Both the position numbers and the translations under genes were made by a program. This document shows positions 120 through 60,619 of a stretch of DNA of 64,000 bases, in pieces. This DNA comes from Amoebophrya sp. A120 (Eukaryota; Protista; Dinoflagellata). The first letter of the stretch is position 1. Each line of letters begins with the position of its first letter. Location: the NCBI GenBank assembly GCA_905178155.1, contig CAJINV010000002.1:12285621-12349620 (forward strand), in the 5' to 3' direction. Below the pieces are notes generated by a model. It saw only the letters and a program-made list of their open reading frames with translations. It had not been told where the DNA came from and did not search any database.

Positions 120-3100
120 CGACGAGGCCGGCGGCAGTGGTTGCGCAGAAGACGCAGATGCCCCGGAGCCACTACCACTCGCTGCTGCTTGCGCAAATGG
201 TGCACTGCTCGACGAGGAAGAACTCGAAAGCGTTCCTTGTCCTTGCTGCAGCGCGCTGTTGCTGTTCACGAGCAGGTGAGCAGGTGTTGCAGAGTGCACT
301 ACGGTTCCTGCAGATGATATCATGCCACCGACAACCCCAGCTCCACCATCGTCAAAGGTAGACCCCGCCACACTGGTGCCTGTTGAGGATCGACCACTTG
401 GAACCATTCCTCCGCCGAGCGTTGCCGATTGGTGGGAAACAGACGCCGGTATGGCGGGAAAATTCACGTTACTTGCTGACGAGCTCACACCTCCCAATGG
501 CCCTCCACCGACCGTGGTGTTCACCGTCGTGCGAATGCCCTGAGAGGCGAGCGCTGGCGCAGCAAACGGGTCGACCGAATGCCGCAAAGCCATGCTCTGG
601 AGAGGACCGCCACTGGTAGTGATTTATTTTTCTTTTTGTGAATATCAATTTTTTTGAAAATTTATCACAGATCACAGATACATTCGTTGCTGGAGTAGTG
701 AACTCTTGTGGTACCGTGCGGTTGCCAGCGATGCTCGTATCATGGCGTCCTCTGCGTCACGCGTGGATCTTCGCAGTGGCTCCGATTGAACCATAAATGA
801 AGCGGAGTTATCGAGGACCGTGCTGCCCAAGTTGTCTCCACCCCCATGCTCCATGACCCCGTCGAGCATTGTAGCGGAACCCCCTGCGAGGGGTCCCCCG
901 CCAACTCCCCCCGGTTGCCCCGCCCCGGGTCCTCGCTGCGGCAAGCCGAGTCCGAGTTGCTGCTGGTGCATGGTATTCAACACCTCGGGTTCGGGTGTGG
1001 GGGCAATCTGGTGAAACTGTGAAATTCGGTACACGATCTGATTGTACGCGTCTGGATATTTTTTCTTGACAATGTTGTTCAACGCGTCCGCGGTCAACTT
1101 CTCGGCAACCGTGTAGGTCTGTGCGCGGACGTACGCCGTCCGCTTCTGCCCCTTCTGGACCAGCGCAGTCTCGCCAAAGTAATCACCTAGGTTTGTTCGT
1201 TCATGACTTGTTTTTCTGCTCACTGGTGGCGGGTTGGACAATCCTTCTGTATCGGTCCATACACACATTTCAAGTTAGGTTTATTGTAGGTTCTGTTTCA
1301 TATATTGTGCGTCGTGCGCAGCTGTGGCGGGAAAAATAGGTGTACGTGTATCTATAAACAGGGAATACTACACCACGCAAGTTCGTGCGATAAACATCGT
1401 ACGGTGGAGACAAGGAGTAACTTCTACTCTAACACCAACTCTTGGAAGGAATATTTTTAGCACAAGACCACGACCAGAAGCACCTTCTCTTTTCTGTGCG
1501 ACGACGAGCTTATTTCGTGCGGTGGGAATGCCATTGGGTCCCGGCATGGAGTTTCGCCGGATGACGACGACGTCACAGAGACCGCGCAGAATGAAGTACA
1601 TTTCGAAGCCCTCCTGCCCGAACCGAATGATGTAGTCCCCCGGGGAAAACACCTCCTCGGCAAAGTTGTCGAGAATTTCAGCGACTCCGGCGGGGTGCAA
1701 GTCGCGAAAAAAGGGCGCTTTTTCAATCAGCGAGGCGAAGAGGCAAATCTTGATTTCCAGCACCAGTGCCTTCGAACTCGTGTTGTAGAGCAGATCGCAG
1801 GCCTGTTTGTCGTGCTGGACCTCTAGAAACTGGTGGTACATATTGATCCGCTATCAAATGTAAAAATGTCTGAGTCTGGAAGATTGCCAGGTTTGTCATG
1901 CACATTTTGCATGACTCCTGATGTCTATGATGCATGCCCTAGCGTCACAGATTTTCTGAAGGCTTCCTAATGCCTATTCCGCATGACAAATGCTCTTTCC
2001 GTGTTGCAAAACTTGGACTCTCTTTGCTGCTCATGCAATACAGATTTTTTTAGAATCCAAAATCAGCATGACAAGTTAGATTCTTCCAGACCCAGACATT
2101 TTTACAGTTGATATCCGCTTGTGGAGATTGGGCGGAAGCTTAATCTGCGTATGGGGCTCTCAAACGTTACATTCTCAACTGTTACATGATTTGTCATGCA
2201 AAAACGCTATCACTTTTCATAATTTCAAACCTTCTCCGCATGACAAGTTCTCGACGCGCTAGATAGCATTGTAATCTGCTCCAAACCTGTAACGCAAAAG
2301 GAGCAAGCTTTTCCCTTTCACTTTTGCCATTCTTGCATTACAAATTTCATGTAACAGTTGAGAATGTAACAGTTGAGAGCTCCATACTGCGTCATGGCCG
2401 CGTTGATCGCTGCCTGTTGCTCCAAAGTTTTACCTCAAGTCAATTTAAAATATGTTAGCTATGGCTGTGTATTGCGTGACGTGGACGTGAGCCCGAAAAC
2501 GAAATCGCCTTTTTGCACATAAATTTGCATACTCATCAAGATGAATAAGAATACAAGACGAACCCTGGTGCACCAGGAGGTCCATGACTGAAAACAGCAA
2601 CGCAAGATCATGTACGCTGTACTTTTTAAAATCATCATCCGCTGCTCGATGAGCACGATGCGTGCGAAAATGACGGCTTCGGCGAAAGCTCCGATGGGCC
2701 GGAGCATGGTGATGCAAAGAACCACGCTGCTGTCGTCTCGATCTGTCATAGAAGTTGGAGGGGAAGCCGAGAACAGGAGTACTGCATCGCGCAGGGCCAG
2801 AATGTAGAACCTGTAGTTTTTATTATGGAGGAACTGAAGCTGCAACTAAGCTGATACACTGATAGCGATTGATAAAAAAGATAAAACCCTGTTCTGCTTT
2901 TTCGCACGCCCGATGTAGAGGATGAGCGATGAGAATGGCGTGGAGGACGAGGCTAGTACTAACAACATCTTCACAAGACGAGTTGCATTTCCAATGCGCC
3001 AGGCAATCAAGTAAGTACTGTCTGGTGCACCTCCTAATGATCCTGATTTAACCACGATTCACACATACTGAAATCAGGCTCAAGCACAGCCAGGTAAACA

Positions 3101-5728
3101 AGAACGACGAGTCAATACTTCCAGACGGATATGTGTTTGACATCCGCTTCGTAGGTGGTTTCCTGATCTGTGTCATAGAGGACGTAAAACCAGGCGACGG
3201 CAAACAGGTGCACAAGCAGAAACATCATGAAGACGAGCTCTGCGCCGGCCCACACGCCCTGGCGGTAGGGGCTGATGACGACCCCGCCCTGACTGGCGGC
3301 CGCGCGGTCCCGCCGCACCGTTTCGTACCGCAAAAGCCGTAGCAAACCAAACCAACTACAGGCAGTCCTGGTTGTCGTAAATTTGATGTTGAATCAAAGG
3401 AGCGGTTTAAAAGTCACTCTTGGGACGAAGTAGTCGTCGTATCTACAGGCCGACTCTGCAACGAAAACTGGAACAAGGGGAAGGGCAACATGTCAGGACC
3501 AACGAGCATAATTTTTCTTCAGGTTCAGTGTAATGGAGGTCCCAGCCCAACTCGTACTACGAATAGCACCTCCACCAGGCAACAGCATTTGTCTCTGCCT
3601 CACCTTTTTCCGGACTGGCTCATGGCATCCACCCAGAGGAGGTTTCCTAGTAGAGTCAGCCAGTTGGCCCAGTACGCCGTTTTGCGGAACAAAATGCGGC
3701 GGATGTCCGCTGGCTCCACGTATTCCCGGCCCTCCTGAATCTCCACGATGCTGGTCCGCAGGGGAAAGAGCAACTCGAAGATCACGAAGGCAAACTCGGC
3801 CACCATGTCGAACACGAAGACTTCTAAAAGGTTGTCCGACCATTTCTTGGTCTTGTCCCCCGCTAACGGGTAGAAAAACCCGAGGTAGAAGGTGGTAAAA
3901 ATCGCGTTGTACAGCATCAGAATGGAGCACAGCTTCCGGCCGAACAGCAGCAAGTCGGAGTGCCCCGCGCGCCAAAACACGGACAAATGCGTGGGCAGCT
4001 TGCCGTACAGCTGCGTGGCAGTGGGGTTCACGCTGTCGGTGTCGGTGTCGCGAATCTCAAACTGGTCGAAGGAAAACCGGCTGAACTCCACCACCGCGCC
4101 GAGGTCTATCGTCGTGCTGGCCCGGGCGTGGTGGCCAGTGGAGAGCGACATGCGGCGGCCGATCGCCGCGCGCGCGCCCGAGCCCCCGCCGGGCCCGCTG
4201 CCGTGGTGAGCGCCCGTGAGCTGGTTGATCCGGCCCATGCTGCCCGGGAACATGGAGATGGAGAAGCTGCGCTTCCGCCCGAGCGTGGGCGGCGCGGTAT
4301 GTATCTTGCCAACCGTCACATTTCCGTCCACTGGTATTGCAATCAAAAACGCCCCCACCCCCGAACGTGGAAGCATTTGTATTGCAAACCTTTCAAAGTG
4401 AAACACTCGCCCTTTTGCATCTCTCAGCATCACAGATTCCCGATCGTGAATAGCAAAAATTTGCATTGCAAAAGATCCCTCCAGCAAAAGCGGCGCTTGT
4501 CATGCAAGCGATGCGATACTTACACGCCTAGACTCTGCATCAGAAAGGTTCGCACTCCTTTCATGCATGACAAAAAGTTTTTATTTGGAAACTTCGCATC
4601 ACAAATTTTTGCAACTTTGCGGGTGGTGGCATTTTTCCTCGCGATAACTGGCGGGAACTGATCGTCCTCCTCCCCGGTTCCGTCCGTACTGGCCGTTTCG
4701 TGCGACACGATGCTCATCTTTCTGGACCTGTCGCCGCCGAAGGGCTCGGACTTGCTCGGGTCCACCCCGGTTTGCATTTGCTTCCCATTCAGCTGCTTGC
4801 TCATCGCGTTGCTCGCCCGTTTTTTCACCTGCCGCTTGCTGCAGTGGTGCAGGTCTGCGGAGGCCATCAGAAAATCCTCGGAGGAACTGCTGGTATTCGT
4901 CCGCGCGTCTTTCCGCGGGTCCTCAGCACTTGAGCTCGACGCCGCGCTTGTGTGCTGTGTGTGGTCCACCTGCTGTGCGGAGGAGCTACCACCGGCCTCG
5001 TCAGGATCGGTCTTTTTCTTGATGGTGATGCCCCCCTTCGAGGAAGATCTCGTTGATATTGCCTGACCAGCCGCTCCGCCCGCGGCGGCGTGACGCACTG
5101 AAGGTTCCACAGCCTCTTTTTCCATTTCGTTGTCAAAATCCTGCAACAAAGTCCTCCGGCCTTTCGTGTTGCTACTTTTATCTTCATGGTCGCGCGGATC
5201 TTTTCTGTGTCCGCCGGCACTCCCCGCTGGTAAAAACGGTGTTGCGTAGGAACAGCTTGCCTCGAGTCCCAAGTGCTTGTCAACTCCTGCGCCTTTTCCG
5301 ACTGCACGGGCTAATGTCGTACTAGCTGTACTCGCGCTGAAAGGTGTAACGGTCGCTGGACCAGGTGCATTTGCTCTACCTGCTGGTGCTCGATCTACTT
5401 CATCGGCGTTTGGATTTAAAAATCCTGTTTGTGTTTCCAGCCCGGTCGTGTTGTAATTCGAGCTGTTTGTTGCATTTCCATACTTGCGTGCTTCCTCGAC
5501 GACGACGCGGCCCGCTGGTCCTCGCGCTCCGGTTCCGACCCTACCGCCGGGTTGACGCTCTTCAATATCGTCCGCGCCCGCCTGGTGACGGAGCGGTGCA
5601 TGGGGAGATTGAAACCCACTGTCGGCATAATCATCTTCCGTCAGCGACACCTGGTCATCGTGTAGTACCTGGCCCCGTGGGGTTTCCCTTTTCTCGTTCT
5701 CGCCAACCCTCGTCTCGTCCCCGACCAT
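120..5728 (-). CDS. Cyclic-nucleotide-binding 6TM cation channel (CNG/HCN/EAG-like), multi-exon, 3' end outside the window
   Basis: Spliced exons give TM helices, S4-like WFGLLRLLR, C-linker TQIKLPPNLHKRINMYHQFL (only after introner removal) and a cNMP-binding domain (APFF...FSPGDYIIRFGQEGFEMYFILRG...GDYFGETAL...RTAYVRA). It has GT-AG introns plus 4 introners. Start codon is tentative. Confidence 0.85.
1852..2113. mobile_element. Introner family A (262 bp), non-canonical intron in the channel gene
   Basis: TIR tatcaaatgtaaaaatgtctgagtctggaag / cttccagacccagacatttttacagttgata. Direct repeat tccgc at 1847-1851 and 2114-2118. Removal gives in-frame LHKRINMYHQF. Confidence 0.95.
2150..2386. mobile_element. 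Introner family B (237 bp)
   Basis: About 40-bp TIR tatggggctctcaaacgttacattctcaactgttacatga. Direct repeat ctgcg at 2145-2149 and 2387-2391. Removal gives AAINAAMTQIKLP. Confidence 0.95.
4335..4646. mobile_element. Introner family G (312 bp), diverged TIR
   Basis: tattgcaatcaaaaacgcccccaccc versus reverse complement of the right end tatcgcgaggaaaaatgccaccaccc. Direct repeat actgg at 4330-4334 and 4647-4651. Removal joins ORFs 4520-5740 and 3600-4487 in frame (QFPPVDGNV). Confidence 0.88.
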
Positions 5729-7196
5729 AGTTCTTGCCACACGGATCGCTAGCCGCCCCCGCCTACAACGGGACGAGCTGCAAACCCCCTACGCAGCTGC
5801 AGTCCCGACTACGCTGCCCCGAGGCGAGGACAAACGCAAGCTCCTTGTTGTCATCTGCTGCTCGTAGCCGTAGCTGCACTGATGAACGGGAACCGGATCC
5901 AACATCTTGTCAGTCAATTTTCCACCTGCTCGATGTAGTTGCGCGACCGTCGAAATTCGACTTTTGTCGTTGTCCCCACATCTTGTTGTACTTGTGGTGG
6001 ATTTTTTTCTCTTCTTGATGAGGAATTTTATTGTTTGACGTTCTTGATGATCAAATTCCAGAAACGGAGACGAAGGACGCATAATTACCGGGTGCAGAGA
6101 TAATTTCCAAACTTTTCATTCAATTTCAATGGCGAGCAGCTGCCCCAACGCCAATTCCGCCGGTTGCTCTAGCCGAGAGTGCTGGGCAATTTCGTTTTTC
6201 CTCTCGTCCTCATCCATTTCCTCGAGCGGCGCCTCGGTGTGCGTGTGCGTAGAAGGATACGATAGATCATTCATCATTGCTATGCATGGCACGACCACAT
6301 GCACACGTGAACATCGGGCACGACCGCTTCAACTTCAAGACCTTATTTACAACAGAAGTGCCAACATCACTCGGAGTCACTCACATCTGCAGCTACAATA
6401 GCGGCGCCTTTGGTAGTTGAAGAACAAGGTCTCCTGAGCGAGCGTCGCTTTGGTCCAGTTGCAGTGGTTGAGACCGTCTCTCTCTCCGTCTGCCGTTGTA
6501 CCAGCACCGCATGAAGATTCATACCTCCAAGACTCGTTTTGCACGTCTGTTTTGGGCATCAAGGTCTTTCCGTCCTTGATGAACGACAACAAGAAGAAAA
6601 CAAGTTCTGGCGCGGCCTTGCTTTTTCTTGTTTTGCGACACTATGTGTTCAGTGGAAAATAAAAAGCCAAAAAGAACCATGATATGCACTTTCTCCATGT
6701 CTAAACTTTTTTTCTCATTACCGTCGAACAATAGATCAGTCATTATGTACTTGGAAATAGAGAGGTAATCACATATATCACTCGTCTCGTTTGGAGATTT
6801 GAATTAAGCACTATAACATGAAGTTCATGTTCATCTAGAAAGAACTACTTCAACTGCTACTTATTCATACATTCGCTTGGGCTGTCGTTCTCGTTACAAC
6901 GAAGCGCGCGAGGGATGAAATAGTGATAGAACAAGACAGAGGACGAGCTGATTCGGCCGCTTTCTCCTGGAGTCACAGTGAGGAGCCCGTCACACTCTAG
7001 AACCTCCCCGTGTCGCGTAGTTATACCCACTAGTACCGCTTACACCGTTGTGGTTGGCACCCACTGTGTGGACGCCCCTCCGCCTCCTCGTTGGTGTGCT
7101 GCTGCGGTTGCATTCACATTCACACCTGCCCCTGCAGACCATGATTCTGTTACAACGTTATAACTCGTAGATCCGCCGATGCTTGCCGCTGCAGCA

Positions 7197-9725
7197 CTAC
7201 CTAGAGCCAGAAGTGACTGTTGATGAAAGGTTCGCTTTCACTCGGTTGCGCAACTGCAGCTCCTCCGCCAACTCACGCAGCTGCCTCTCCCGGTCGTTTC
7301 GCGTGCCTAGCATCGACTCTGTGTGTCCGGGGACGGGCCCCGCACGGTAAATCAGATCAAAACCGCCGACCCGGGTGATCTGATCGTGGTAGTCCAGCGC
7401 GTTGCCATTTTCGTCTACCTGCGCCAAGTACTTCTCCAGATCCAGAATAGTCAGCACGTCGTCCAGTGTGGCGAACTTCATTTCGTAGTCCGCCTTCGTG
7501 TTGGCGGTCAAGGACGGGCTGGCGTTCACCTCAATCAAGGTGGGGTTAAAGTGCGAATCGATCATGATATCGTAGCCGTACATTTCGAAGCACTTGCGGT
7601 CTGCAATCATCACCCGCTGCACGGCCAGCAGACTGTAGATGATGATTTCCTCGAAACGATTGAAGAGGTCGATGGTGCGCTCACGGCCGATTTTGGAGAT
7701 CAAGTACTGCTTCATCCGCGGGATTTCCCACTTGCCGCCGGTGCGCTGGTAGGTGTTGTCCTTGGAGAAGAGGTTTTTCTGCACCGCCACGTTGGTCAGG
7801 TGCGAGGACAGCTTGGTCGGGTCCCGCACTGTGTCGACCGAGTATCGGGTCAGGGAAAACCGCGCGAACCCTTCTCGACTCAGCCACACGGTGAGCGGCT
7901 GGTAGGAGGTTACTAGTGCATAGATGCGCAAGTCAAACTTCCGCCCGCCGATCAGCAGCGGATTCTCGATGTACTTTTGCACGATGTAGGATTCCGCCGG
8001 CCCCTCGTCGGGGTCGAAATCGTTGCCACCCGCGCCCGCGCCGCCGTAGCCGCCATCGCCCCCGCCGCCGGCGCCGCCCCCGGTCGCGGGCTTCCAGTTC
8101 GCCAACTGGCTCAGCTTGGTGACCATGAAGATGCCAGTGCCCTGACTCCGGCCGACGGGCTTCATAATCCACACCTGCTTCCCGCACCGCCGAAACTCTT
8201 CGACGAACATGCTGTATTCCTGAGGCAGGAGAAACGTGATGGGTATCATCTCCTCGTACTTTCGGGCCGTTTCCAGTGACTGCGCGCTACCTTCCTTTTC
8301 CAACGCACGCTTGTGCCGCTTCACGTTCTTTGCTAAGAGGTCCTTGCGGGTCAGCTCGTAGTGGTTGCGAAAATGGTTCACGCGCTGCCAGGGCTCCAGG
8401 TGCAGCTTTTCCAGCTCCCCGTGAATCCAGTCCTTGTCTGCCCAGTGGATGTGCCAATCCTGCTTCAAGTGCTTCGTGCTCACCGCGCTGGTACCCGCAG
8501 GAGCAGCCACTGCACCTCCGCCAGCACTCGCGGATGTTGACGTGCCTGTCGCTCCTGTAACCGCAGAGCCACCACCGCTGGCAGTACTCGCAGGACCTCC
8601 CAGCTGTCTGGCACTTCCGGGCGGAGACGTCGTCGGGGGTGTGCTCGAAGAAGCAAGGAAAGAAATCGGTTGACCGCCCATACCAGATGCGCCGCTAGTA
8701 CCAGGTCGCGCAGATACAGATGAACCTCCTCCCTTCGTTGCGGCAGTAGGTGTTGTACCCGTTGTACTGCAGCTGGTGGCAACTACCCCCGGAATGCTGT
8801 CATTAGTCGTTGACGCAGACGCACCGGCACCAGATCCTATAGCAACGCCCCCAGAAGTGGACATTGTGGTTGTTGACGAAGCCGATTGCCCCGCTCTCCC
8901 GGTTGCACTCCCGCGGCGAGCGACGTTTGAACTCGACGCAGCAGCACCACCTCCTCCCGTTCCTCCGCCTTCCGTGCCGGCCGCGGCCGACGCAGACGAA
9001 ATCACGGACGCGCCGCTATCCTGAGTAAAAACGTACCCACACCAGAGTCAAGATGGGGAATCGGCTAGACAAATCCACAAGTTTTGGCTGTTTTGCATGA
9101 CAAATTTGGATTCGTAGTGTAGTGCTGTTTGAGCTAGCTCAGCAGCATGACAGATCTAGCATATCATGCTGATTGGAGCATGACAAATTGCAAAACACGA
9201 CTAGAAAACGCTTCTCATGGGGCTCCGCATGAGAAACATTTTCAGCATGCAGATTTGCATGACAACTATGGTGTGGGTACGTTTTTACTCAGGATAACCG
9301 CTGCGCGGGGTCCGCGGCGACGGCAGGTCATCGACGCCCCATTCCTTCCACCCCCGGCTCTTGAAAACGTCATTATGGAGAGAAAAAAGTTTGTCACAGT
9401 CATGTCACTAAGTTGCAGATTTTGCATTACAAATTTTTTTAGCATCACAGCTTCTCCTTGTATAATTGCAGAAACACTAGGGAAATCCCTTATGAAGTGT
9501 GGCTGTGATGCATTTTTACGCATGACAGACAATTTTGTATTGCAAAAACGCCCATTAGTGATCGTGACGAACTTTTTTCTTTTGATAGTCATAGATGGTG
9601 TTGTAGTGCGAGCTTCCCTCCCCCGTAACCGCGTCCGTGACGCGATGCAACTTGGCGCAACGAAATTTGATCTGTTGCCACGGCGCCGGATCCCGTTTAA
9701 TGATGCGGCGAAAATGCTCGGACAT
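7197..9725 (-). CDS. TTLL9: Tubulin polyglutamylase TTLL9-like (TTL family), 3 exons split by two introners
   Basis: Motifs IKFR...NTIYDVFKSRGW (restored by introner removal), HFRNHYELTRK, WIMKPVGRSQG, KFDLRIY, HLTNVAVQK, FEMYGYD and EVNASPS. Confidence 0.85.
9017..9296. mobile_element. Introner family C (280 bp)
   Basis: TIR tatcctgagtaaaaacgtacccacacca / tggtgtgggtacgtttttactcaggata. Flanks gccgc and accgc (4/5 match). Removal gives PRTPRSGASVIS. Confidence 0.93.
9374..9587. mobile_element. Introner family D (214 bp)
   Basis: TIR tatggagagaaaaaagtttgtcac / gtgacgaacttttttcttttgata. Direct repeat gtcat at 9369-9373 and 9588-9592. Removal gives NTIYDVFKSRGW. Confidence 0.92.
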
Positions 9726-22600: not shown

Positions 22601-24289
22601 GGCCGGCAGTTGACTACAAGTGTAGTAGCTACAAGACACCACGACTTCTCCAGGAAACGAGCCTACTGGTCTACGCCTCCGAGAGACTTCTCCAACACCA
22701 ACATTTCGTCTACTTGTGGTGCATGTACTAGCGTACTAATTAATTCCCTACAAATGTTGAAGATGCGTCAACAAATGAAGATGCGTCAGCGTTTCAATGA
22801 ATAGTGTTCCAAACAGAAAGTGAAGAACCATTCATCAAGCTCTTCAAGGAAGCGCTTTTCTTGGATCGATTGTACTCTTGAGAGAAAGTCGATCTTCGTA
22901 TTCCGTTCCAAGAAGAAATACAAAGCAAAACAAAACCCTTTGTGCGTTTCCTTGATAAGGAAAGAAGGCTTGGATTGCAGCTTTTTCAAAACAAAACACT
23001 GAGCGCAGCGATCAATCAGGCGTCAACAAAAAGCTGAGAAAAAATTATCTGCTTATGTGCGAGCGTGCGTCGAGGTACATAAACGCGTGATAGATGAATT
23101 AGAGATGATTTTCTATGCGTCGGTAGAACTAGGATGATGCAAAGATTTACTTTTGCGTGAAAATAGTTGTCATAAGGATTGTACAGAACAACATCACAAC
23201 AAAAACAAACCTGTTGGTTGGAGGAGAGAATGAAAATTTGCATCTATTATGTCATTTCCCACACAGCATCAGCAAAAAATATGCCTTTTCGTCTCATGAT
23301 CTCAGATTTTCTTTGTTGTTGCATGATCAACTTTTGATGTTGTTTCATATTCATTTCATCGGATCGTTTGAGAAAAACTAAAGACGTGGCGAGCTGATCC
23401 ATTTGTCGTGATTCGCTTTGGATTGTCATCTTTTTTATTCCCAAGATTTACTCGGAGATGGAGATGCAGAGGCAGAGCTAGAATTTTGTTCATTTGCTTT
23501 CTGGGCGAGAATGATTCATATCTTTCAGCGACAGTGCAGCAACGGTCCATGGTATACACTCTTGAATCGTTGGTCGTGGTTGTGTGAAGATCCATCATGT
23601 AGCACTATGCCTATGACAACTATGTCTAGTATCTAATCCTATTGGCATTTCTAGGTGGCTGAGAACTACGAAGAGACCGAGTTCTCGCTTGATTCACCTC
23701 ATACTTTTTCGCTGCGTGTCAATTTTCGCATGTCGCTCATGTTGGGATGATCGCATATTCATCGTTGGAGTTGGTGTTCTTGTGGTGCGCAATCCAACTT
23801 GCGATTCGCTCAAGGTCAACCGTCCCGTCGGCATCAACATTCACCCACCTTCCCTCAGCGACCACCGCGCCAGCGCTGCTCGGCATGGGAATTCGTGCTC
23901 GCATAATTCATTGGTTGTTTTTCGCAAGGAACCCACAACCACCAACCTTCTGCGCGCAGGTTCTTCCTAGTGCAGCACGAAGCCGGCTATAATTGTTCGT
24001 TCTTTCCCGAATTGCTTGATCTCGCCTCGGTAAGGTTGCTATGGACGAACAACCCACGCCCGTTCTCCCGTCGCCTACCGACCAATCGCGACTACACTCA
24101 CTCTACGGCTAGCAGCCGCACAAACCGGAACTCCTGAGCCACACGACACGCTGCCAGCAGCTGCCGCCGTTCCCGTACCAAGGCAACGAGGTGCGCCACG
24201 ACCTGTGCTCCTCGTCTGCTAGACCACCTTCTTCGTGGTCCCCTACGTCGCCTGCCGGTATTTCGTGAAGATTACGTGCGACAGCACCC

Positions 24290-28057: not shown

Positions 28058-28621
28058 TTTGTCTCTTTCCTTCCCTTTATTGTGTCCTTAGTCTTGTTTG
28101 CTTCAGGGACCGGACGTGACTGAGAAAACATTCGCAAACTTTCTCGTTGATCGGAATCCATCTGCGAATCTGACAATTGCTGGTACTAGCAGGGGGGGCC
28201 ACAAAAAGCGAACATGATCAAATAGGCCTTGTTGAAGAAGACAGCGCCTAAGCGGCGGGGTTCCAAAATGTAGCTTCGTCCGATTATTCTTCAGTTGTGC
28301 AGCGCTTTCAAGCTGCTCGTTGCAGCTGCAGTTGTTGCAGCATCAGCACTCCTTTTTTAAAGATCTGCGTTTCTTTTTTGCGCCAAGTCAATCATGCTCA
28401 TGCTAACTCATGCGCCATCAAACATCACATCCATCAACTCGCCTGTCGCTGCGAGTATCCCAGTATTCCGAATGGCTATCCGCAGATCAAATTATCGTAG
28501 AAAAATTTTCAACAGTCACGAGACACCAGATGCTTCAATTTTTTCCTTTTTCGAACGCCGAAACCAGATATGCCGGAACGCAGCGACATTGACGTCGTGC
28601 ACGTGGATGCAAAACAAAGTA

Positions 28622-48300: not shown

Positions 48301-50575
48301 TCCTCTACGACGGTGCCATCCGCGTTACCGCCGGTCGAAAACGCCAAGGTCGCTTCGCCCCGCACGCCCTTTCCGGTGTCGCTCATTTTCACCAGTTCCA
48401 CCTTTCCGCTGTCCGTGAGCAGGCAGCTTTGGCCGTATTCACAGCTTCGGTAGGGGGCCCACTTCGGGAAGTCGAGGTACTCGTTGTTCACGTCGAAGGG
48501 CTGGGCTTTCATGTCCAGGACAAATTTCCCGCCCGCGGGCTGGTTTGCATCCTGGCTTACGGTTTGCAGTTTCCTGCCACTACTGATGTCCGGGTTCTCG
48601 CTGACGCCACGCGCACTGTCGGTACCCACCTCAGTGAGGCCCGTTCGTCCAAAGTAGTCGTTCACCTCGCCTTGCTGCGGACCAGCGAACAGCTTCAACA
48701 AGGAAGCAGACTCGGTGTAGGCAGGACCGTTGAAAGCGACCACTGTGAAAAGGAGTTAGTGTTTGGTGTATATTTATTTTTCCGGCAAATGCTAAACATG
48801 TCTTGTCTATAAGCAGCAAGGTCTCAGAACGCAGGAGAATCTGAATCAGGAACAGGAAGAGAGCGTGATTATTGAAAGTGAAAGTATACCGTACGTAAGC
48901 AAAATCATATTTTCGTGGCACAAAAGAAAACAATACTGGCATCATCTCCGGTCTTAGCTGGATTCAGGATGGAGTTGAGCGCAACCACCAAAATGACCAC
49001 GATGCAGCTGAGCCATGCTACAAAGGACACCCGCGCGAGCACGGACACGTCCCTCAACCAGCACAGGAAGGTAAGAATCAGGGCCACCGTCACAATCCAA
49101 CCGTTCTTCGTCAGAGCCGGAATGTAGTCGAACAGAATCACGAAGTTCATGGCCAGCAGCAGCATGAACACCGTTCCGACCAGAATAATGAAGGTATGGT
49201 AGAACTTGGAGTAGACTGTGATGCAAATTTATTTCGTAACATTTTATGAATTTATGTGTTTGAGGAAAAGCATAGCTGTACTTGTAGTACAACAATATCG
49301 GTACAAAAATGTATGAGCCTCAGCGTCCTTGCAGTAGTCAAAGTCAAATTTCGAACGTGAATGGAGATGAAAATCATAAAAGTTCAGTACCAGCCGCCCA
49401 GCACTTTCCGAACAGGACCTTTGTTAAAGATCCCATCTGCGACATATCCTCTTGATCGACATTCAGGTCTTCAATACGCTGCATCACTTGTGCCTTTTTT
49501 ATTGCCGCCACGATGGATGCAGCAGTGCAGCTGTCATATTTTTTCATTTGCATTTTATCAAGTTACTGATGTAATTTGATCGGCATTTGCAAAACGTTCA
49601 ACATCATTAAGTTTCTGCTGAAGATGGACATCACGAGGCCACGCAAAGACGAAGACTTTCTTGTTAGAGCGCTCCGAGGTGAAGCAGTAGGTGCAAAAAA
49701 ACATGTTCAAGTTCATCATCAAAAGAAAAAGATTTGCAGTTCCAGCACTGCAGCAAAAGTTGCAAATACAAGGCCAGGATGAAGATCGCTGGGACGTAAC
49801 CCGTGGACTGGAAAACGCTTGGAAGGGTAACGATACCGGCCCCGATGTATCAAATGTAAAAATGTCTGGGTCTGGAAGAATGCAACTTGTGATGCTGCGT
49901 TTCGATGACTAAAAAATTTGTGTTGCATGAGCAGCAAACAGAGTCTAATTTTTACTACGCGGAGAGGGCATTTGTCATGCGGAATGGGCATCAAGAATCC
50001 CTCAAAAAACCTGTGATGCTAGGGCATGCATTACAGGCATCATGGGTCATGAGAAATATGCATGACAAGTGTTGCATTCTTCCAGACCCAGACATTTTTA
50101 CATTTGATACGATGGCCGTTGTGACGATGGAAAAGATGGACTCCCACCAGGTCGTAGTCCTTCCGAATCCCGCGCCTGGGTCGGAAAGGGACCCCCTTGA
50201 TATCATATGCAAAAATGTCTGGGTCTGGAAGAATGCAACTTGTCATGCTATATCTGAAGCATGCAAAAATCTGTGTTGCATGATTACCAAAAGTCGTCCA
50301 GTTTTGGACAAGTCGGGAGGGAGTTTCTCATGCAGGATAGGCATGAGAGAGATCGCACAGAATCTGTCATGCTAGGTCCTGCATTCCAGGCTTCATGGGT
50401 CATGGAAAAGCTGCATGACAAATCGCGCATTCTTCCAGACCCAGACACTTTTACATTTGATACTTGACCTTGAGGAACCATCGCTGTCGCTCTCCGCATG
50501 GGACTGCAGAATGCTTTTGTGGCTTTTATACGAAATCCGGCTCAGCCCCGAGGGCGGGATCAGCGGTGCCGTTTC
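45375..50575 (-). CDS. Amino acid/auxin permease (Aa_trans, SLC36/38-like) with a large loop insertion; first exon not located
   Basis: TM1 motif SIFSIVTTAIGAGIVTLP (restored by introner removal), LCWLRDVSVLARVS, FSFTFVMMIP...M..P, VGICGYLTYG and VPFFGQLVDLVAAF. N-terminal ETAPLI fits an acidic dileucine sorting motif. Confidence 0.85.
47962..48198. mobile_element. Introner family B (237 bp)
   Basis: 45-bp TIR with 1 mismatch (tatggcgttctcaaacgttacattctcaactgtta[c/t]atgaatttg). Direct repeat atggt. In-frame removal gives PPDTMPSVS. Confidence 0.96.
49848..50109. mobile_element. Introner family A (262 bp)
   Basis: TIR tatcaaatgtaaaaatgtctgggtctggaagaatgcaac. Direct repeat cgatg. Splits the TAIGAG motif. 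Confidence 0.96.
50201..50462. mobile_element. Introner family A (262 bp)
   Basis: Family A TIR. Direct repeat cttga at 50196-50200 and 50463-50467. In-frame removal gives GSSRSRGSLS. Confidence 0.95.
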
Positions 50576-51929: not shown

Positions 51930-54462
51930 GATGGTTGGAGATTTTAAGACTTTTAGTAAATGGCTCTCGCTATCAAGTAGAAGTCAAGGTTTAAGCTTTA
52001 CAAGGGAAAGCGGCTAATTGGCGGGCGATTCGAACTTTTCCAAAACTTTTCATTTGACTTTTCAGGATTTCAGGGCATTGAAAACGATTTGATAAAGCGA
52101 GTCAGAACGAAAAAACGCAGTGAAGATACTCCAAGCGACAGAACAGGGGCGCTTGCGAGGTCTTGGGCGCCGACGCCTCCTCTTGTCCCGCGGGTGATCG
52201 GCGAATCCCGAGCGACCGCCTTTCCACCCGCCGAAGCGTGCGCGCGCGCCGGGTACCCGCCGACCGCACGCAGCCAACGGCTGCCGGCGCGGGCGCCCTA
52301 AAGAAAAAGGCCATGACCGCCCATCGCACCCACCCGCCCCCCAGGCCCGGAAGGCCTACCCGGGAACTGACTAGGAGGAGGGCTACCGACACAGGGAAGG
52401 GGGCCGGTCCGCCAGACCCTAAACCCGACGCAACCGGGCACCCGGCAACGCGCGCCCTCGCCAAAAAACGCGCGCGCCCAAGCCTCACAAACACCCGGAA
52501 TCGCGGCGCCAGCCCGCGCCTCCTGCCGCCGGCGGGCCGCCACCGCGAAACGGCCCGACCCTGGCAGCTTTCTTAATGCAAAGCAACCACCGGCCAAAAG
52601 CTGCCGGCGGTGTGTGCTGCTGTTTCGCGCTTTTCCACATGAGGAAGATCAAAGCGCGCCAGCCTGTTGGGCTTTGTTTGACTTCAACGAACCGCCGGCG
52701 CCGGGTTCTATCGGTCGCCGGCTGATAATACTAACGACACAGGAGGGCCGACAAAGAAAAGGGGCACCCCGCTGAGGCGCCGGCCGCGTGGGGTTCTGGC
52801 GATTTGGGGCGCGCAAAAGAGCGCCCCAAAAAACTCGCGGCAAATCAGAAAAGCGAAGCCGCACGACAGGGCCGGGGCTCCGTTCGGAGCATTTGGCCGG
52901 CCGCGAAAGCGGCCGCCGCCTTTTCGCCGGTTTCTATGCGGCGGAAGCTTTGCAAAGGGTGCCGGCGCGCAAAGAAAAAACACAGAAAAGCAAAAGCGCG
53001 CCAAGCGCGCGAGGCCAATCCCCATGCCATGGGACCGGTTTGCCTTCGGTTTCAGGGCGCTCCACCGCGGCGCCCGGATCGGCCCCATACCGCCAGGGCT
53101 AGCTTTCGGACAGGGGTTCTGAAAATTTGGCAAAGAACTACCATGCTTTCCAAAAGACGGCCAAGCCACGCGGCATGGCCATACCAAAAGCGGCACGGGG
53201 GGCCCAGAAAAAAGACACAGTGGCTGGCCAGGGCAACGGCCGGCGGGCGGGCAAGGCAGCCAGCGGCACCGACCTCACCACCTCCGCCACGGAGGCTATA
53301 TTTGGCACGCTGGGCACACGCAGCAGCGGCTTACCGTCCGACAGCCCCACACGTAGCAAGCAAACAGGCCCCGAGGGTAACTAAGCCCCCACGACGTCCC
53401 CTCCCCTACGTCGCACGCAGGGGCGCAGTTCCGCCCGTGCACCAACCACATCGCCCGGCGCCCCAACATGGCTCGCCCCGCCCGAAACGGTGTCGAGCGT
53501 GCCATGCGGTCCGACGTCGGACCGCACGGTATGCTTGTCGGAAAAGCAAAACAGCAAACGCACAGGCCCCGGCTGACCAGATAGAGACGAAACAGATCGC
53601 CCAATCCCGGCCCACAGGGTGGGGCGCAGGGCGAGCGAAGGGCGAGACGAACGACGGGTGGCAATCGGGCCGCCGGCACGTAGGAAGTAGACCCGCGGCG
53701 GCGCCGCCCGGTATTCCAGGCGCGCAGGCAGGCCGGCGGGGCCCAACATGCAGGCGCGCCCCCATATCAGAGGGCGGGAGGCCCCCAGACAGGCCGGCCC
53801 CGGCCGGCTGGCGCCTGGCGGATGCGGCGGAATCGCTTCGGCGCCCCAATAACACGCCTCCCCCGCCCGGGCTCAGCAGTGCGCAGGGAGGCGCCACGCC
53901 CGCGCGGCTGTTGCCGGCCGGCACACTGTGGCCCCGGTCTAGGTCGGTCGCGGGCGGGGGGGGCGAAGGACTGGCGCGGCCGGGCCGGGTGTTCCTTCCG
54001 TCTATGGGTTTGGGCAAACCGACGCCAACCCCAGCGGCGCCCGGGCCCCCAAGAGCCCGCCGGCCGCCGCAAGTGTGGAGTACGCGGAGCGCATGCCCCG
54101 CACGCGCCCCGAACGGCGCAACGCGCCAACCAAGTTCAGGGGGTCGGTAGCAACCGCCGAAGCCCGGGCGCCCTCTCTTGGTTCGCAGCAAGCTACACGC
54201 GCACCGGCGCCCCCGGGGCGTGAATCCGCTGCCCGGTGGCGCATGCGACAACGTAGCGCCGGCCGCCCGCCGGGGCGGGGCCGGCCGCTTGCCTGGCTAC
54301 GTGCGCAATAACCGCAGGCGTGCCTGCCGGGGGGCTGTGCCTGCCTCTTTTCGGGCGCAAGGCAGCCGCCCGAGGGCGGCCCGGCTGGCGGGCAGGAACA
54401 AAGGGCAGGCGCCGGGCGGCGAAACTTTTCCGCCCCTCTACCGAAAACTCTGCCGGAAACTT

Positions 54463-54680
54463 TGCCGAGAACTTGCCGAAAACTTTCCCCCGAACTTTCC
54501 CGAAAAGTCGGCGAAAGCCTTCCGCGAAACCTTCCCGAAAAATTCTCCCGTTGAAAAGTCGACCAAAAGTTACAGACCGGGAGTTGAAAAGTCAGCCAAA
54601 AGTTTTCGAGTCCGAAAATGATCCCGAAGCGGGAAAGTTTCGGGAAAGTTCGGGGGAAAGTTTTCGGCAAGTTTTCGGCA
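54463..54680. repeat. 43-bp inverted repeat built from ~11-bp ccgaaaacttt-like units
   Basis: 54463-54505 versus the reverse complement of 54638-54680 has 1 mismatch. Confidence 0.9.
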
Positions 54681-56207
54681 CTCAAGCAGAAGACTTCGCC
54701 GCGCCCTCAAAAGCCGAAAAGCCTGAAGGCTTGCGCATCCGCCAGGCTTGCGAAGAATCCTGCTGCCCCCCCCCTTTTCTACATGGCTGAGGCGGTCTCC
54801 CCGAAAATGGGGACAGAGCCTCCTGGGCGAACTTATTGCGCGCGCCGGCGGGGCAGCATGTGAGTGGCGCCCCGCGCGCGCCCCTGCTGCGCCGGCGCCC
54901 TTTCTACTCGCGAAAAGCCGGCCGCGCAAGGCCGCCGCGACCGAGGCGGAGCACTCGGGAGCGGCGGCATGGTCTCGGCGCTTTGTATGTAAGTGCGGGG
55001 GGGCGGCGAATATGAAAGAGAAAGGGGCAGGCCGGACGGCCTCTAGCTAGCGCCCAAAGAAAGGCGCCGAGCCAAAACGTGAGGCGCGGGCAGCTCCACC
55101 GAAGCGTAGCGCGCCACGCCATGCGGCCCGAACGTGCGAGGCCGGGCCGCCCGCGCGGCGTGCTGCGCGCCTACTTCAATGCGCCAAATATGGCCGCCGG
55201 GGCGGAGATAATGAGGCCGGCGCCGCTTCTTTGCCCGCCGACCTTGGCCCACACCACTTTTTTGCTTTTTCTGGGCCCGCCGTGCCGGGGTGGGTAAGGT
55301 TATGCCGCACGGTATGGCGGCCGGTTGGGGAAAATGGCAGACGTTGGGCAACTTGCCAAAACGCCTTCCCGAAAGCCAACCCCGATGCTATCGGGCCGGC
55401 CCGGGCACCGCGGGGGGCGCCCAAAAACCGAGGGAAAAGCGGGCCCATAGAATGCGGGCTGGCTTCGCGCGCTTGGCGCGTTTCTTCTTTTTTGCGTTGT
55501 GTGTTATTTTTCGCGCCCGCGCCTTTTGCAAAGCTAGCGCCCCCCCGCTGAGAACCCGGCAAAAGGGCGGCCGCTTTCGATTCGCGACCGGTTTCGCGGC
55601 CCTGCCATACTTACGGCTTCGCTGTTCTGGCTTCGGGCGGGTTTTTTGGGGCGCCCTTTTGGGCGCCCCAAGTCGCGCGCCAGAATCCCACGCGGCCGGC
55701 GCCTGAGAAGGGTGCCACGTTTGCCGACCCCCCTACGTCATTTTTTCAGACAGTCTTTCCACCGGCGGCCGACTGAGCCCACCGGCGACTGCATTCATTG
55801 AAGACAAAACCAAACAGGCGGGCGCGCTTGGGTTTTTTTCATCTTCAACATGCGAAAAAATGCGAGCCAACGCCCCAAGCCCCCGGCCGTTTTTGGCGGT
55901 TCTTGTCAGGAAAGCTGCAGAGATAGAGCCGGCTCACGGGGTCGCTGCGGTACATCTTACAAGAGAAGGCAAACCACCCAGGCACACAGGCTCGTGCTGG
56001 AGGGCAACATACCAGAGGGGCCACGGGGCCCCGCCCGCCGGCTCGCTTGTGGGGCGGGCCACCCGGGGGAGTTGCGTTATCCATTTCCTGAACCAAAGAA
56101 CACCCCGCCGGGGAAGCCCACCCAACCGGGGGGGGTCGGCCCCACATCGCGATGCATGCCGCACGCACGGACGGCCTGGCGCGAGAGGCCGGCCCACCAT
56201 CGCGCGC

Positions 56208-56243
56208 CATACCATGCGGTCCGACGTCGGACCGCATGGTATG
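56208..56243. repeat. Perfect 36-bp palindrome (related copy at 53502-53529)
   Basis: cataccatgcggtccgac|gtcggaccgcatggtatg. Confidence 0.95.
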
Positions 56244-57698
56244 CTGCCTCTTTGCTTCTCTCGTTCAAGCAGGCGAAGCAGAATAGACGGGCAACCGAAA
56301 TAGACAGGTGGCGCCACCACAGCGCGCCACAGACCCACATCACGCGCCGGCCATCGGGGTGGCCCCCCGACCGCAGGCCCTTGACACTTCTGCCACCGCT
56401 AGCGAGACGAGCGGAGGAGCCGCCTCTGCCCGTTGGTTGCAAAAGGGGGGCGCCTTTGGCGCACGCTTCGGCCGCGTCGCGTAACCGCGGAAAGGCGGGC
56501 AGGAAACAGACGGCCGGGGCGCGACGGCCTCTATTTTGTAAGAATGGGCAAGCGGCGGGCCAGAATGTAGGGGGCCGAAGGTACGTCGGACAGCGCGCGG
56601 CCGGCGTGCCATCCAAGACACCGCGGCGGGGCGGCGCGCCCATTCGGGCCCTGGCAGTGGCAGCCAGTGCCATTGCTTATTTAAAAGGCGCTCAGGGCGA
56701 AGAGGGCCGACGCGCCCCGGCATTTCCGAAGCGCGAGGCGGCGATCAACATCCGGGCGAATACTGAAAGGCCAAAGGCCAGCGCCCGCGCACCACTTCAA
56801 AAGGTGCACAAAATGCGCACAGGGCCCCACAGCGCTCGCGAATAATCGCGAACAACCGACCACGGAGGCGCTGCCCGTCCGATGCGCGGCGGGTGGCATT
56901 TCCCGCAGCCTGCTTGGAGGCGTCGATCAAAATGGCAGGCAGCTGGCGGGCACACGCCGCGGCGAAGAGGTGCCGCCCTTTCATGCTCTGCCACTCCCAA
57001 AGTGCGGACTTACCAGCAAAAGGCAGCACGGTCCAAACAATTGTCGCAAAGCATGGATTGCCGACGATCAAAATAGCGACTTTGCCAAAAGTCAAAGTAA
57101 AAGTTTTGGAAAAGTCGCTATCCCGTTTCAATTACCCGTTTTCCCTTGTAAAAGCTTGTTGCCTGTAATACTTCACCTCCCTCCAGTAGCAGCGTCTGAA
57201 GTCTTTACTTGTACTGGGCAATACCAGACAAGAACAAATGGGCAAATTTTGATTACGACCACTGTAGCTTCACACTGGTCGACGCGAAGTCATTGCAAGC
57301 GCTCGTCCTCTCCTGAACCAGCCTAATCAACTTGCACCTCCTTTCTTTCAGATGATCATGATTCAAATCCAGTAGTGCGTCGTTTAAATCGCGCTAATTC
57401 AAAGATACAAGCGCACGGCACGCGTTTGAAGCATCATGAACAACAACTTCAATTTCAATTGCTGTCACCGTCGTGCGGCATTAATGATGGGCGTTTCAGG
57501 CGAAAATGCGACAGGGCGAGTCATTGTCTCCTTACCCGTAGTTTAGTCGGTTTTTTTTTCCGCTTTGCGCCTGTCGTGCACTGGAATTGCTCCCAGGAAC
57601 TCTGACTCTGTAGGGATCGCCCCAGGTAGCGGAAAGAACAAACCAAACGAAACTTACAGTCAATCACAGGGATCACAGGAAAGCAGAAGCTTTTGAGT

Positions 57699-60619
57699 TC
57701 ATGTGTCTTTGTTATCCTGCTCCACCAATAGCGCCAGAATATCGTCCCATCTCTCGTCGTATCCGGCCTGTTGAAAGTGCGCGATGTACCGCGATCGGAT
57801 CAAGCGATCCACTGCTGCGGGCTGCTCCAGGACATCTTTGAAAACGCGTCTCTCGATGATCCGCATCACGTCGGCAAGGCACAGCGTGTTTCCGGTTAGC
57901 AGCTGCAAGGAGTCCAACACGCGGAGTATCCTGAGTAAAAACGTACCCACGCCCGAGTTGTAATGCAGATTTGCAAAGACAGGAAGACTTGTAATGCGCA
58001 TCCCCATGAGAGCCATTTCCAGTCGTGTTTTGGAATTTGTGATGCTGTGAACAGGATGAGCAGACGAATCTGTGATGCGGCTGCACTTGCTAACCTGCAC
58101 TACACTGCATAGTGCAACTTGTCATGCGTGACTCCCAAAACTCCTAGGTTTGTGTTGCAAAATCCCCATCTTGACTATGGGGTGGGGACGTTTTTATACA
58201 GGATACGGAGAATGTCCACGTGCGGCGTTACCGGCTTCGGACCTCTGCCTTGGGCTGGTCTTGCTATCCTGTGCAAAAGTATCGTAACGTACTCGTATGG
58301 AAATCATGCATTACAAAATCCTTTGTTAAGGTAAATCAGCATTACAAATTTTATTTCTCATGCTGAGGAAATTTGTAATGCATTTATACGAGTACGATAC
58401 TTTTGCAGTTCATACTTGCGCCCGCAACACCATGCGTTTTTGATCGCGAATCCACGACTCGTTGTCCCCCTCCTGGCGAGCTGCAAGAACCTGCAACACC
58501 CCCAGATGTGGATCCTGCGGAATTACTCTGGGATGAATGTTGCTTGATTGCATTGCACAAGATCCAACTCTGTCCGGAGACAGACAACAGTTCCTGCTTT
58601 CCACGGGCTGCAAATGCGTCAAACGTTTTCTGATACTTCTTGGACACAGAAGAGTCATTGGTCTGCCCAGCGTGAGCAGGGCTCTGCAGGCTTTCCTCAG
58701 TTGTAGTTTCGTTCCGACGGGAAGTGGTTGGAGACATGGAAGAACCGCAAGAAGCCCCCACGATCTCCTGACTGCGGGCCCTTTGCTCGCGTTCCGCAAG
58801 CTCCTGCGACATGCCGCGAGTGTACAACAGGGCCGTCGAGTTCAGGAGCTTTGCAAGCTCCGCCGCCGGGAAGTTGCTGTGTGGACTGTTGCTCCCGGCG
58901 CACTGACTATCCATCTCCTGCAGCACACGATTTGCGAACACCGCCAGGTCGTGCAACGGAAAAGCTATTTCCCATCGACTGAAGACAACCAAAACCGCCG
59001 TCAAGTCCTTCAGCTCGAACAGATGCAGCGAGCTCAGAGAGTACTTGCGAATCTTCGCGTATAGGGAGCGGAGGAGAGAAAGCTTCTGCTCTACCTTCGT
59101 GCTTGAAGTGGAAGGATTTTGTGCGTTGCAGCTGACCACTGCAACATGTTGACCAGTGTCTACAACTTTGCGAAGCCCGGTTTCGTCAACATTGCTCCTA
59201 GAAGTGCTGCCCGTCTGACTAATGTTGTCTGGACTAGGCGAGGAAGAGGTTGATGTCGTCTGCGCAGTGTTCGCGAGCATTTGCGTTTGCTCCAGTCTCT
59301 GCGCTACGGCCCGATAGTACTCCAGCAGCATGCCGAAGGCGTATGCTACCGTTGAGAGCTCAGCGGGGGTGTTGAACAGAAGTTTCTCGCCGGCGCTGCT
59401 TACGCAATACCGTACGAATTGTTCCTCGTCCATGCCGCACCGTGCGAACGAGTGGATCACGCGGGCAATTTCAAGTGGCGTTGCCTGTTTTAGGTTTTAG
59501 CGTGTACCAGAAGTAGTCGGCTCGAGTGACGAAGTTTTGGTTATGGTTCCCCTTCATCACTCCAATCGGAATATATTAAAAAAAAACCGTACTCTATACA
59601 ATTGCAAAGACGTATAGGAGTTGTATGTCGACAAAAGCAAAGCATCAAGCTTAAACTCGTGACGACCCAACAACATCACAAACGGGTTCGGCTGTTTTAC
59701 CTCGCCGATTGTGAACTTGGCGTGGTAGGCAATGCTCTCAAAGAGTCTCTTGTCCTGCACTACAGCGGCGTCCGCAAAAGCTTTCGCGATGACGGACAGG
59801 TCGCGGATGTGAAACGGCTCCACTTGCATGCGGGTTTGCAAATGCGTGGAAAGCCTTTTCCACAGTTCGTCGTCATTCAGTTCAAGCTTTGTAATTGCGT
59901 TAATGAACATGGTTTGCTCCGTGGTCTGTTGCAAGTCCGGCACCTGTGATGTTTTTTGTGTTGAGGGTTGATGCAGCAGCAGTGCAGGCAGTCTTGGCTG
60001 AGTCTCAATTTTGGCCACTACAAGTACCAACCAGCGTAGCTGGCCCACATAGGAAGCATAATCAACAGTGGGTCATATAATCAGTATGATCTTCTTCATG
60101 TTCTATTATACCCGTATTTTCAACTCCTTAACCATGACCAGCCGCTCGGATTCTGTCAGTTTCAGGCCGCATTTTCCGAACGCCGATAGCATCATGGCCA
60201 GATAGGTCGCATTGAAGTACGCGATCTTCTCGAAGAAGAGCTTGCGAATCTCGCCCTCGGGCCCGACAATCATCGGCAAATACCGTTTATCAAATGCAAA
60301 AATGTCTGGGTCTGGAAAAGTGTAAACTTGTCATGCAGGTTTTTCATGACCCATGAGGTCTGGAATGCGGGACCCAGCATGACAGAGTCTGCGAGGTCTC
60401 TGCCATGCCTATCCTGCATGAGAAACTCCCTCCAAACTTGGTCTAAAGTGGACAGCTTTTGGCACTCATGCAACACAGATTTCTGCATCGTTCGGATTTA
60501 GCATGACAAGTTGCAATCTTCCAGACCCAGACACTTTTGCAATCCATACCGTTGCCGAAGCGGAACCTGCCGCGAGGCGGACGACGAGGAAGATCCGCCT
60601 CCACCGCTCTGGGATTGTC
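57699..60619 (-). CDS. Helical-repeat protein (HPR/OPR/FASTK-like, probable organellar RNA binding); 5' exon(s) not located
   Basis: Repeats such as FNATYLAMMLSAFGKCG, FHIRDLSVIAKAFADA, TPLEIARVIHSFARCG, TPAELSTVAYAFG and FELKDLTAVLVVFSRW. Three introners are removed in frame. Confidence 0.65.
57927..58205. mobile_element. Introner family C (279 bp), inverted relative to the 9017 copy
   Basis: TIR tatcctgagtaaaaacgtaccc / gggacgtttttatacaggata. Direct repeat cggag. Removal gives VDILRVLDSL. Confidence 0.94.
58265..58414. mobile_element. Introner family F (150 bp), inverted relative to the 15731 copy
   Basis: tatcctgtgcaaaagtatcgta / tacgatacttttgcagttcata. Direct repeat cttgc. Removal gives VAGARPAQG. 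Confidence 0.92.
60288..60548. mobile_element. Introner family A (261 bp)
   Basis: Family A TIR. Direct repeat ccgtt at 60283-60287 and 60549-60553. Reverse-complement homolog of 50201-50462. Removal gives PLRQRYLPM. Confidence 0.94.

Follow-up and report, generated by a model that had tools for sequence, protein, structure and literature searches.

It has long been asked where new introns are placed; in current models their gains are either independent of one another or dictated by nucleosomes. The present analysis concerns the introners of the marine parasitic dinoflagellate Amoebophrya sp. A120, small transposable elements that turn into introns, and their spacing, starting from one stretch of 64,000 nucleotides (GenBank assembly GCA_905178155.1, contig CAJINV010000002.1, positions 12,285,621 to 12,349,620 of the forward strand), the whole of which is called the window. 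Introners lie 25–125 bp apart several times more often than expected by chance, and rarely within 25 bp of each other. A120 introners are classed as DNA elements with terminal inverted repeats, of unknown superfamily (Gozashti et al. 2025, PMC12130899), carrying inverted repeats of 8–20 nt and direct repeats of 3–5 nt (Farhat et al. 2021, PMC7789003); no U1 small nuclear RNA was detected in A120 (PMC7789003), and "tens of introns in a single gene" are described (PMC12130899). Spacing between elements is not analyzed in the available parts of PMC7789003 or PMC12130899, and no analysis of introner spacing was found in those of PMC9860276, PMC11282704, PMC11453091 or a Polarella preprint (10.1101/2020.10.14.339549). 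Across the literature searched, spacing between Amoebophrya introners is not reported, supplement figures, which may bear on novelty, lying outside its scope; the elements themselves are known, and the new and apparently unreported part is the attraction zone at 25–125 bp together with the exclusion below 25 bp.

Huff et al. (2016) reportedly described introners with phased spacing in Micromonas and Aureococcus. Local hopping or insertion by resident ends is seen with P, Ac/Ds and IS30/IS911, and MITEs (miniature transposable elements with inverted repeats) form multimers; as in A120, new copies come to lie near resident transposon ends, but neighbors in A120 are not copies of each other, are not nested and keep a stand-off of at least about 25 bp. 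Target-site duplications (TSDs) of 5 bp are typical of Ty/Tf-type integrases. The yeast long terminal repeat elements Ty1 and Ty3 (Pol III genes), Ty5 (Sir4) and Tf1 show tethered integration beside a landmark (PMC3545840), and share with A120 a narrow insertion window with a stand-off beside a protein-bound landmark, whereas the A120 landmark would be the element's own relatives in coding exons, with positive feedback and no series at about 80 bp. The Micromonas and Aureococcus introners insert in nucleosome linkers (as cited in PMC9860276); like those of A120 they are MITE-like intron generators with non-random spacing that is not set by sequence, but the A120 peak is sub-nucleosomal (median 66 bp), single and located at resident introners, with no 150–200-bp repeat.

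The window was scanned blind for TAT…ATA termini, ends in inverted orientation and a direct repeat of 5 bp on either side, giving 14 complete elements of 150–321 bp and one partial element. A stricter caller returned the same 14 and made no call in 10 of 10 shuffled windows, and a homology screen of the window found no further elements that the caller had missed. The TSDs were exact in 13 of the 14 and had one mismatch in the other, 10–14 of the first 14 bases of the inverted ends were complementary in every case, and 12 began with the left-end pattern of TAT, seven variable bases and at least three A; in the two family-7 elements the A-run begins two bases later. Among the independent loci described below, A frequency was 0.82–0.90 at positions 11–13 over 353 element ends, and the TSD was exact in 364 of 462 calls. 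Each window element has between 4 and 128 full-length relatives, with best identities of 82–96%, and read depth along a DNA run whose sequence is that of the window spiked over the elements alone. For two genes of the window the products are identical to annotated A120 proteins, also across the micro-exons. The window elements are known A120-type introners, because ends, direct repeats and sizes match the published description and the genes are identical to A120 proteins; the TAT start with its A-run, the inverted ends, the lengths of about 150–320 bp, the non-canonical splice ends and the many families are all alike.

Ten of the 14 complete elements sit in five close pairs with gaps of 36, 77, 47, 91 and 59 bp, and the blind scan reproduced exactly these figures from an earlier note, which had been made from the letters of the window. 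Pair 1 joins a family-0 element (1852–2113, 262 bp, TSD TCCGC) to a family-7 element (2150–2386, 237 bp, TSD CTGCG); pair 2, family 4 (9017–9296, 280 bp, TSD GCCGC/ACCGC) to family 9 (9374–9587, 214 bp, TSD GTCAT); pair 3, family 1 (41745–41996, 252 bp, TSD CAGCG) to family 5 (42044–42364, 321 bp, TSD CCCCC); and pair 5, family 4 (57927–58205, 279 bp, TSD CGGAG) to family 2 (58265–58414, 150 bp, TSD CTTGC). Global identity within these four mixed pairs is 40–57%. Pair 4 consists of two family-0 elements in the same orientation (49848–50109, 262 bp, TSD CGATG; 50201–50462, 262 bp, TSD CTTGA) that are 81% identical. Four long open reading frames (ORFs; 11580–14735, 20429–22735, 24290–28087 and 30194–34648) contain no elements, in agreement with the remark in the note that ORFs of 2–4 kb elsewhere were empty. 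Uniform placement of 14 sites over some 33.5 kb of coding sequence gave 0.45 close gaps on average, and five were reached in 0 of 100,000 runs; conditioned on five predicted exons with two elements each, P = 3.4e-4. Since this one window had been chosen by eye and might show the pattern by luck, independent loci were used as the decisive check.

The replication set comprised at least 144 loci matching the family-0 end in metagenome contigs of one assembly, and so sampled around one family; it amounts to 579 kb including overlaps, has full flanks for about 80 loci, and stands in for a genome-wide count. The flanks of these loci have no homology to the window, but the same families occur at up to 96% identity. 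The family-0 end had no match in viral contigs. The loci held 360 strict and 403 total unique elements, with no calls in shuffled loci. Among 250 strict adjacent gaps, 7 were below 30 bp, 91 at 30–100, 23 at 101–200 and 10 at 201–300 bp; 123 of 289 adjacent gaps in the 144 loci were at most 125 bp, compared with 5 of 13 in the window (Fisher P = 1.0), which is therefore typical. Gaps of up to 160 bp had a median of 66 bp and quartiles of 47–85 bp. The rate at which a next element is met was determined for elements picked by the search pattern alone (230 sides), with 68 further uncalled segments included on the strength of homology. Within 25 bp it was 0/kb (no event in 5.3 kb), at 25–100 bp 3.9–6.1/kb (62 events), at 100–160 bp 2.4–3.1/kb and beyond that 0.4–1.2/kb, with 0.6–1.2/kb at 160–750 bp. 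Over all 403 elements the corresponding values were about 0–0.5/kb below 25 bp, 4–8/kb at 25–100 bp and approximately 1/kb beyond 160 bp.

Gene-level insertion bias was absorbed, together with exon-level bias, by permuting positions within ORFs (84 ORF blocks, 256 elements, 172 distances). At 20–85 nt 89 distances were observed against 39 expected, and at 0–20 nt 3 against 15. Gene-level bias does not explain the excess, because it survives permutation within each reading frame; random spacing once such bias is included, an outcome that had been envisaged beforehand, was not found in these 144 loci, which are a sample and not the whole genome. The close spacing of the earlier note is real, though the elements are not strictly paired: clusters of 1, 2, 3, 4 and 5 elements numbered 123, 46, 7, 7 and 2.

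Similar distances were seen elsewhere. Seven end-to-start spacers from the DNA run identical to the window measured 6, 33, 37, 39, 41, 41 and 50 bp, drawn from 12 of 64 rows with 40 letters per row, among the matches listed. Introners are numbered consecutively in one published gene of A120, and 4 of 8 of them have starts 298–330 bp apart, which, element lengths not being given, would imply gaps of roughly 40–80 bp. Two spacers of 7 bp (locus L071, 8408–8414) and 6 bp (DNA run identical to the window) have overlapping TSDs, so that one element can land on the duplication of another, that is, later. After splicing, such spacers would leave exons of 1–2 nt, or else represent double introns spliced in order.

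The spacing kernel is specific to introners, symmetric, and independent of gene bias, family, direction and helical phase. Same-family neighbors made up 11 of 123 close pairs and 16 of 152 distant pairs, and the neighbor was the best match in 2 of 123 close pairs, which bears out the view that the mixed-family pairs of the window are not tandem duplications. Predicted ordinary exon boundaries showed no excess of nearby introners (21 vs 20.8 expected of 108), whereas boundaries from the same predictor that resemble uncalled introners did (39 vs 20.8 expected of 92). An apparent attraction to ordinary donors (30 vs 17.7) disappeared on removal of the uncalled introners from the count (9 vs 8.8). 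There was no direction bias (42 vs 32, P = 0.30) and no upstream or downstream bias, no head or tail bias in any of the 12 families, no cross-family orientation rule (P = 0.30) and no deficit of neighbors with matching outer ends. Gap size hardly depends on element length, spacer GC is 0.55, like that of other flanks, and no target-site consensus was found. The window spacers of 31, 42, 54, 72 and 86 nt suggested helical phasing at first sight, which a set of 120 independent gaps did not bear out (Rayleigh Z 0.86).

We read these results as a resident introner acting as a landing pad, to which later insertions, whatever their family, are drawn in the DNA just beyond its ends, and give this reading a probability of roughly 55%. 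Attraction by a resident element is the best fit, since introner ends show the effect, predicted ordinary boundaries do not, and chains exceed pairs. The resident element is probably protein-coated, such that the element and the first 25 bp or so of flank would be shielded and incoming elements of any family would be drawn to the next 100 bp or so on either side. A shared transposase or host factor may bind the arrays of GCAT[G/C]ACAA (GCATGACA), a motif present in 12 of 12 families of at least four members, mostly as direct repeats 31–33 bp apart, with a density of 14/kb in elements vs 0.4/kb in close spacers; judged from sequence, this is the layout that would be expected of binding sites for one protein. 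The pull might be exerted by a flexible tether on the incoming complex or by flanks kept open. Insertions would be sequential, roughly a third of them attaching beside residents, as suggested by growth simulations (q about 0.3–0.4). Left and right neighbors were independent (odds ratio (OR) 0.94, 95% interval about 0.57–1.55; 1.11 with missed elements), and 12% of elements had two neighbors (17% with missed elements). Simulated growth gave OR 1.2–1.6 with 9–20% of elements having two neighbors, and simulated co-insertion OR 0.16–0.50 with 3–6%.

Of the mechanisms offered in the earlier note, attraction of insertions by an existing element is thus the one retained, being specific to introner ends and able to build chains, although direct tethering gains no support from motif number; the shared transposase survives as one internal motif in all 12 families, with no transposase found. 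If residents do attract, clusters of introns would arise from introns already present and genes would be cut up into micro-exons. A bolder version, self-seeding intron gain, in which transposase coating the residents would capture elements of any family 25–125 bp away, about a third of new introns would be born beside old ones, and chains of micro-exons would grow by positive feedback, is tentative, and we lean somewhat against it as a whole; if true, it would be the reverse of target immunity. The spacing rule would represent a footprint left naturally by the machinery of insertion or of splicing, with a shield of about 25 bp and a reach of about 100 bp, obtained from a genome with tens of thousands of introners and unusual chromatin, and it shows how micro-exons and intron-dense genes could come about with no selection in their favor.

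Several observations weigh against the landing-pad reading. Motif number gives no indication of whether an element has a neighbor (rho 0.02, P = 0.79; P = 0.87 when compared inside families). The neighbor-facing half more often has fewer motifs than more (37 more vs 59 fewer, P = 0.03). No transposase ORF was found in two long candidates or in 10 ORFs of GC-rich blocks. A 10.5-bp period, which a rigid protein bridge would give, was not found in the gaps (P = 0.42). The edge of growth over co-insertion is small, about two log-likelihood units (best values −11.2 vs −13.1), and the cluster sizes hint at an even-number excess. Isolated elements look slightly older (TSD mismatch 35/123 vs 33/176, P = 0.05), the opposite of simple growth, and the age proxies are weak and give no order within pairs. 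Moreover, the ordinary intron boundaries are predictions and were not read from RNA, and replication comes from one metagenome assembly, sampled around one family, which may belong to another strain. The exclusion zone below 25 bp could also be a minimum exon size imposed by splicing instead of a shield.

The alternative that survives best is unbiased insertion followed by selective survival, in which a non-canonical intron is spliced better with a similar one within about 125 nt, and isolated insertions and exons below about 25 nt are purged. Such cooperative splicing, akin to the cooperative processing of pairs put forward in the earlier note, would likewise be introner-specific, family-blind and unphased, as observed, and negative selection on most new introner insertions is reported (PMC9860276). 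A weak deficit at 0–20 nt from predicted ordinary boundaries (3 vs 6.6, P = 0.09) fits a minimum exon size, and same-family close pairs are mostly head-to-tail (9/11 vs 4/16 at >200 bp, P = 0.006, one of many tests), as expected if inverted neighbors mis-pair and are lost. However, an excess of at least 5-fold requires at least 80% of isolated insertions to be removed relative to neighbors, and the isolated elements are no better substrates (GT possible in 24/63 vs 53/109, AG in 34/63 vs 47/109, hairpin energy the same). Micro-exon lengths show no frame bias (remainders 0/1/2: 45/32/43), and the absence of upstream or downstream bias also speaks against it. We regard this explanation as unlikely for the pattern as a whole; the head-to-tail bias and the cross-pairing predicted for pair 4 (below) suggest that selection trims it.

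Somewhat less probable again is co-insertion, whereby two elements would arrive in one event about 65 bp apart, through a double transpososome or a site briefly open in a burst. This would be family-blind and would account for the fixed distance scale, and it is favored by doubles being common while triples are no commoner than quadruples (46/7/7). The simulated odds ratios and two-neighbor fractions fall short of those observed, however, and neighbors show no correlation in age rank (rho −0.10, n = 108) or in TSD decay (OR 1.1), both weak measures. Co-insertion may nevertheless contribute to the pattern.

Insertion into nucleosome linkers with phased spacing, or a Ty1-like preference for the nucleosome surface beside the element, we consider very doubtful. 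Most genomes with introners are reported to show a preference for linkers (PMC9860276), and the 25–125-bp zone would fall on the first nucleosome beside the element; introners were also in excess 155–300 nt upstream of predicted ordinary donors (21 vs 9.7 expected of 48), not at acceptors, which may be a prediction artefact. A fixed lattice, by contrast, predicts peaks near 0 and at one repeat length, and both are low: to the deficit at 0–20 nt is added one at 155–200 nt (3 vs 14 expected, within-ORF permutation), with no peak at 150–200 bp. Pair correlation decays smoothly to 600 nt, gaps are barely tied to element length, and dinoflagellates have few nucleosomes (PMC11453091). The chromatin phasing proposed in the earlier note accordingly gains no support. 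A trough at 160–200 bp, also considered, weakened when missed elements were added (0.3 to 1.0/kb). Hot spots in genes or regions, local hopping, composite transposons and assembly artefacts are largely refuted and the least probable of all: density does vary by gene (1–1.4/kb at 160–500 bp vs 0.5–0.7/kb beyond 1 kb, and the four empty ORFs of the window), but when sites are permuted inside ORFs the exclusion zone and an excess of 2.3-fold remain, neighbors are not mutual copies, every element carries a separate TSD, pair 4 has outer ends that differ at 4/5, micro-exons are native and spacers collinear with orthologues, and 58 loci, some of which overlap, contain close pairs with their reading frames restored.

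The minus strand is the orientation of all window genes examined, and the spacers between paired elements form minus-strand micro-exons whose contribution to mRNA is the spacer less one duplication. The pair-1 spacer (2114–2149, 36 bp, 31 nt in mRNA) belongs to a cyclic-nucleotide-binding-domain protein: excision of the elements with the micro-exon retained gives a peptide with 81 of 81 residues identical to annotated protein P0121, which carries Pfam cNMP_binding, and the alignment to orthologues P0122–P0124 is ungapped. The pair-2 spacer (9297–9373, 77 bp, 72 nt) encodes an N-terminal part of a TTLL9-like tubulin polyglutamylase (Pfam TTL), with 110 of 110 residues identical to P0100 across the pair; compared with P0001, the first half of the exon (YDVFKSRGWKEWG) is conserved and the second half absent. 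Excising each element with one TSD copy restores ORFs of 555 nt for pair 1, 2079 nt for pair 2, 1017 nt for pair 3 (spacer 41997–42043, 47 bp, 42 nt) and 1356 nt for pair 5 (spacer 58206–58264, 59 bp, 54 nt). Excision is less clear for pair 4 (spacer 50110–50200, 91 bp, 86 nt), where the ORF is a short 447 nt with its frame unsettled, and a search for a homologue of this gene found none. Because the spliced peptides match annotated proteins and the orthologues are collinear, the window spacers are judged to be native coding sequence older than the insertions. The restored ORFs and the match to annotated proteins would fit removal of the window elements from mRNA as introns. No RNA data set is recorded as carrying the stretch searched, and no element-spanning splice junction was found in RNA runs X8 and X9 or in RNA-like X1 contigs, among the matches listed; within these, X8 and X9 touched element ends only and the X1 contigs showed one ordinary intron. 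As the lone same-family pair of the window, pair 4 is predicted to cross-pair round its exon, the outer cross-pairing probability at equilibrium being 0.98, compared with 0.00 for the four mixed pairs. Same-family neighbors predicted to mis-pair round a micro-exon would provide a direct test of hairpin-guided splicing.

The remaining complete elements of the window are single: family 11 at 4335–4646 (312 bp, TSD ACTGG; a 1869-nt minus-strand ORF after excision), family 2 at 15731–15880 (150 bp, TSD TCCCG; blind scan and excision), family 7 at 47962–48198 (237 bp, TSD ATGGT; inside an amino-acid-transporter gene) and family 0 at 60288–60548 (261 bp, TSD CCGTT). The partial element, family-0-like (repeat families D2 and D5), lies at 1–119 and is cut by the window start. 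Orientation relative to transcription was biased in families 1, 3 and 5 (26:10, 18:8 and 15:4; P = 0.011, 0.076 and 0.019, uncorrected, 8 families), hinting at strand-dependent splicing.

The window also contains two GC-rich features. At 62096–63929 there is an 1834-bp GC-rich element with TAT…ATA termini, inverted ends of about 59 bp, a flanking repeat of 8 bp (AAAGTAAT) and, at its center, a hairpin of 49 bp; its three ORFs gave no Pfam match, and it is a transposon of a type different from introners. A 5.2-kb GC-rich block (63–70%) at about 51970–57170 has nested inverted arms at 71–87% identity, with no TSD seen and no Pfam match in seven ORFs; a short stretch of it recurs in locus L052.

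Nesting of elements in each other gave 0 candidates in 100 kb of element DNA, and five or six element copies are interrupted by unrelated sequence. In L052 (5001–5972) a family-0 introner is split by about 690 bp of unrelated DNA that ends in an A-rich tail and has a flanking direct repeat of about 19 bp containing the shared motif, which looks like a retro-type insertion into that motif. What might be taken for a nested insertion at 42072 is not one, because doubled ends characterize family 5: in the element at 42044–42364 and its 26 full-length relatives, both ends carry a pair of TAT-starting units with 28 bp from one to the other, which suggests an old element-in-element origin fixed in the family. 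Finally, P0121 has its annotated start at 4151, and excising 4335–4646 extends the same frame to 5788 (4152–5788), so the annotation may lack the N-terminus.

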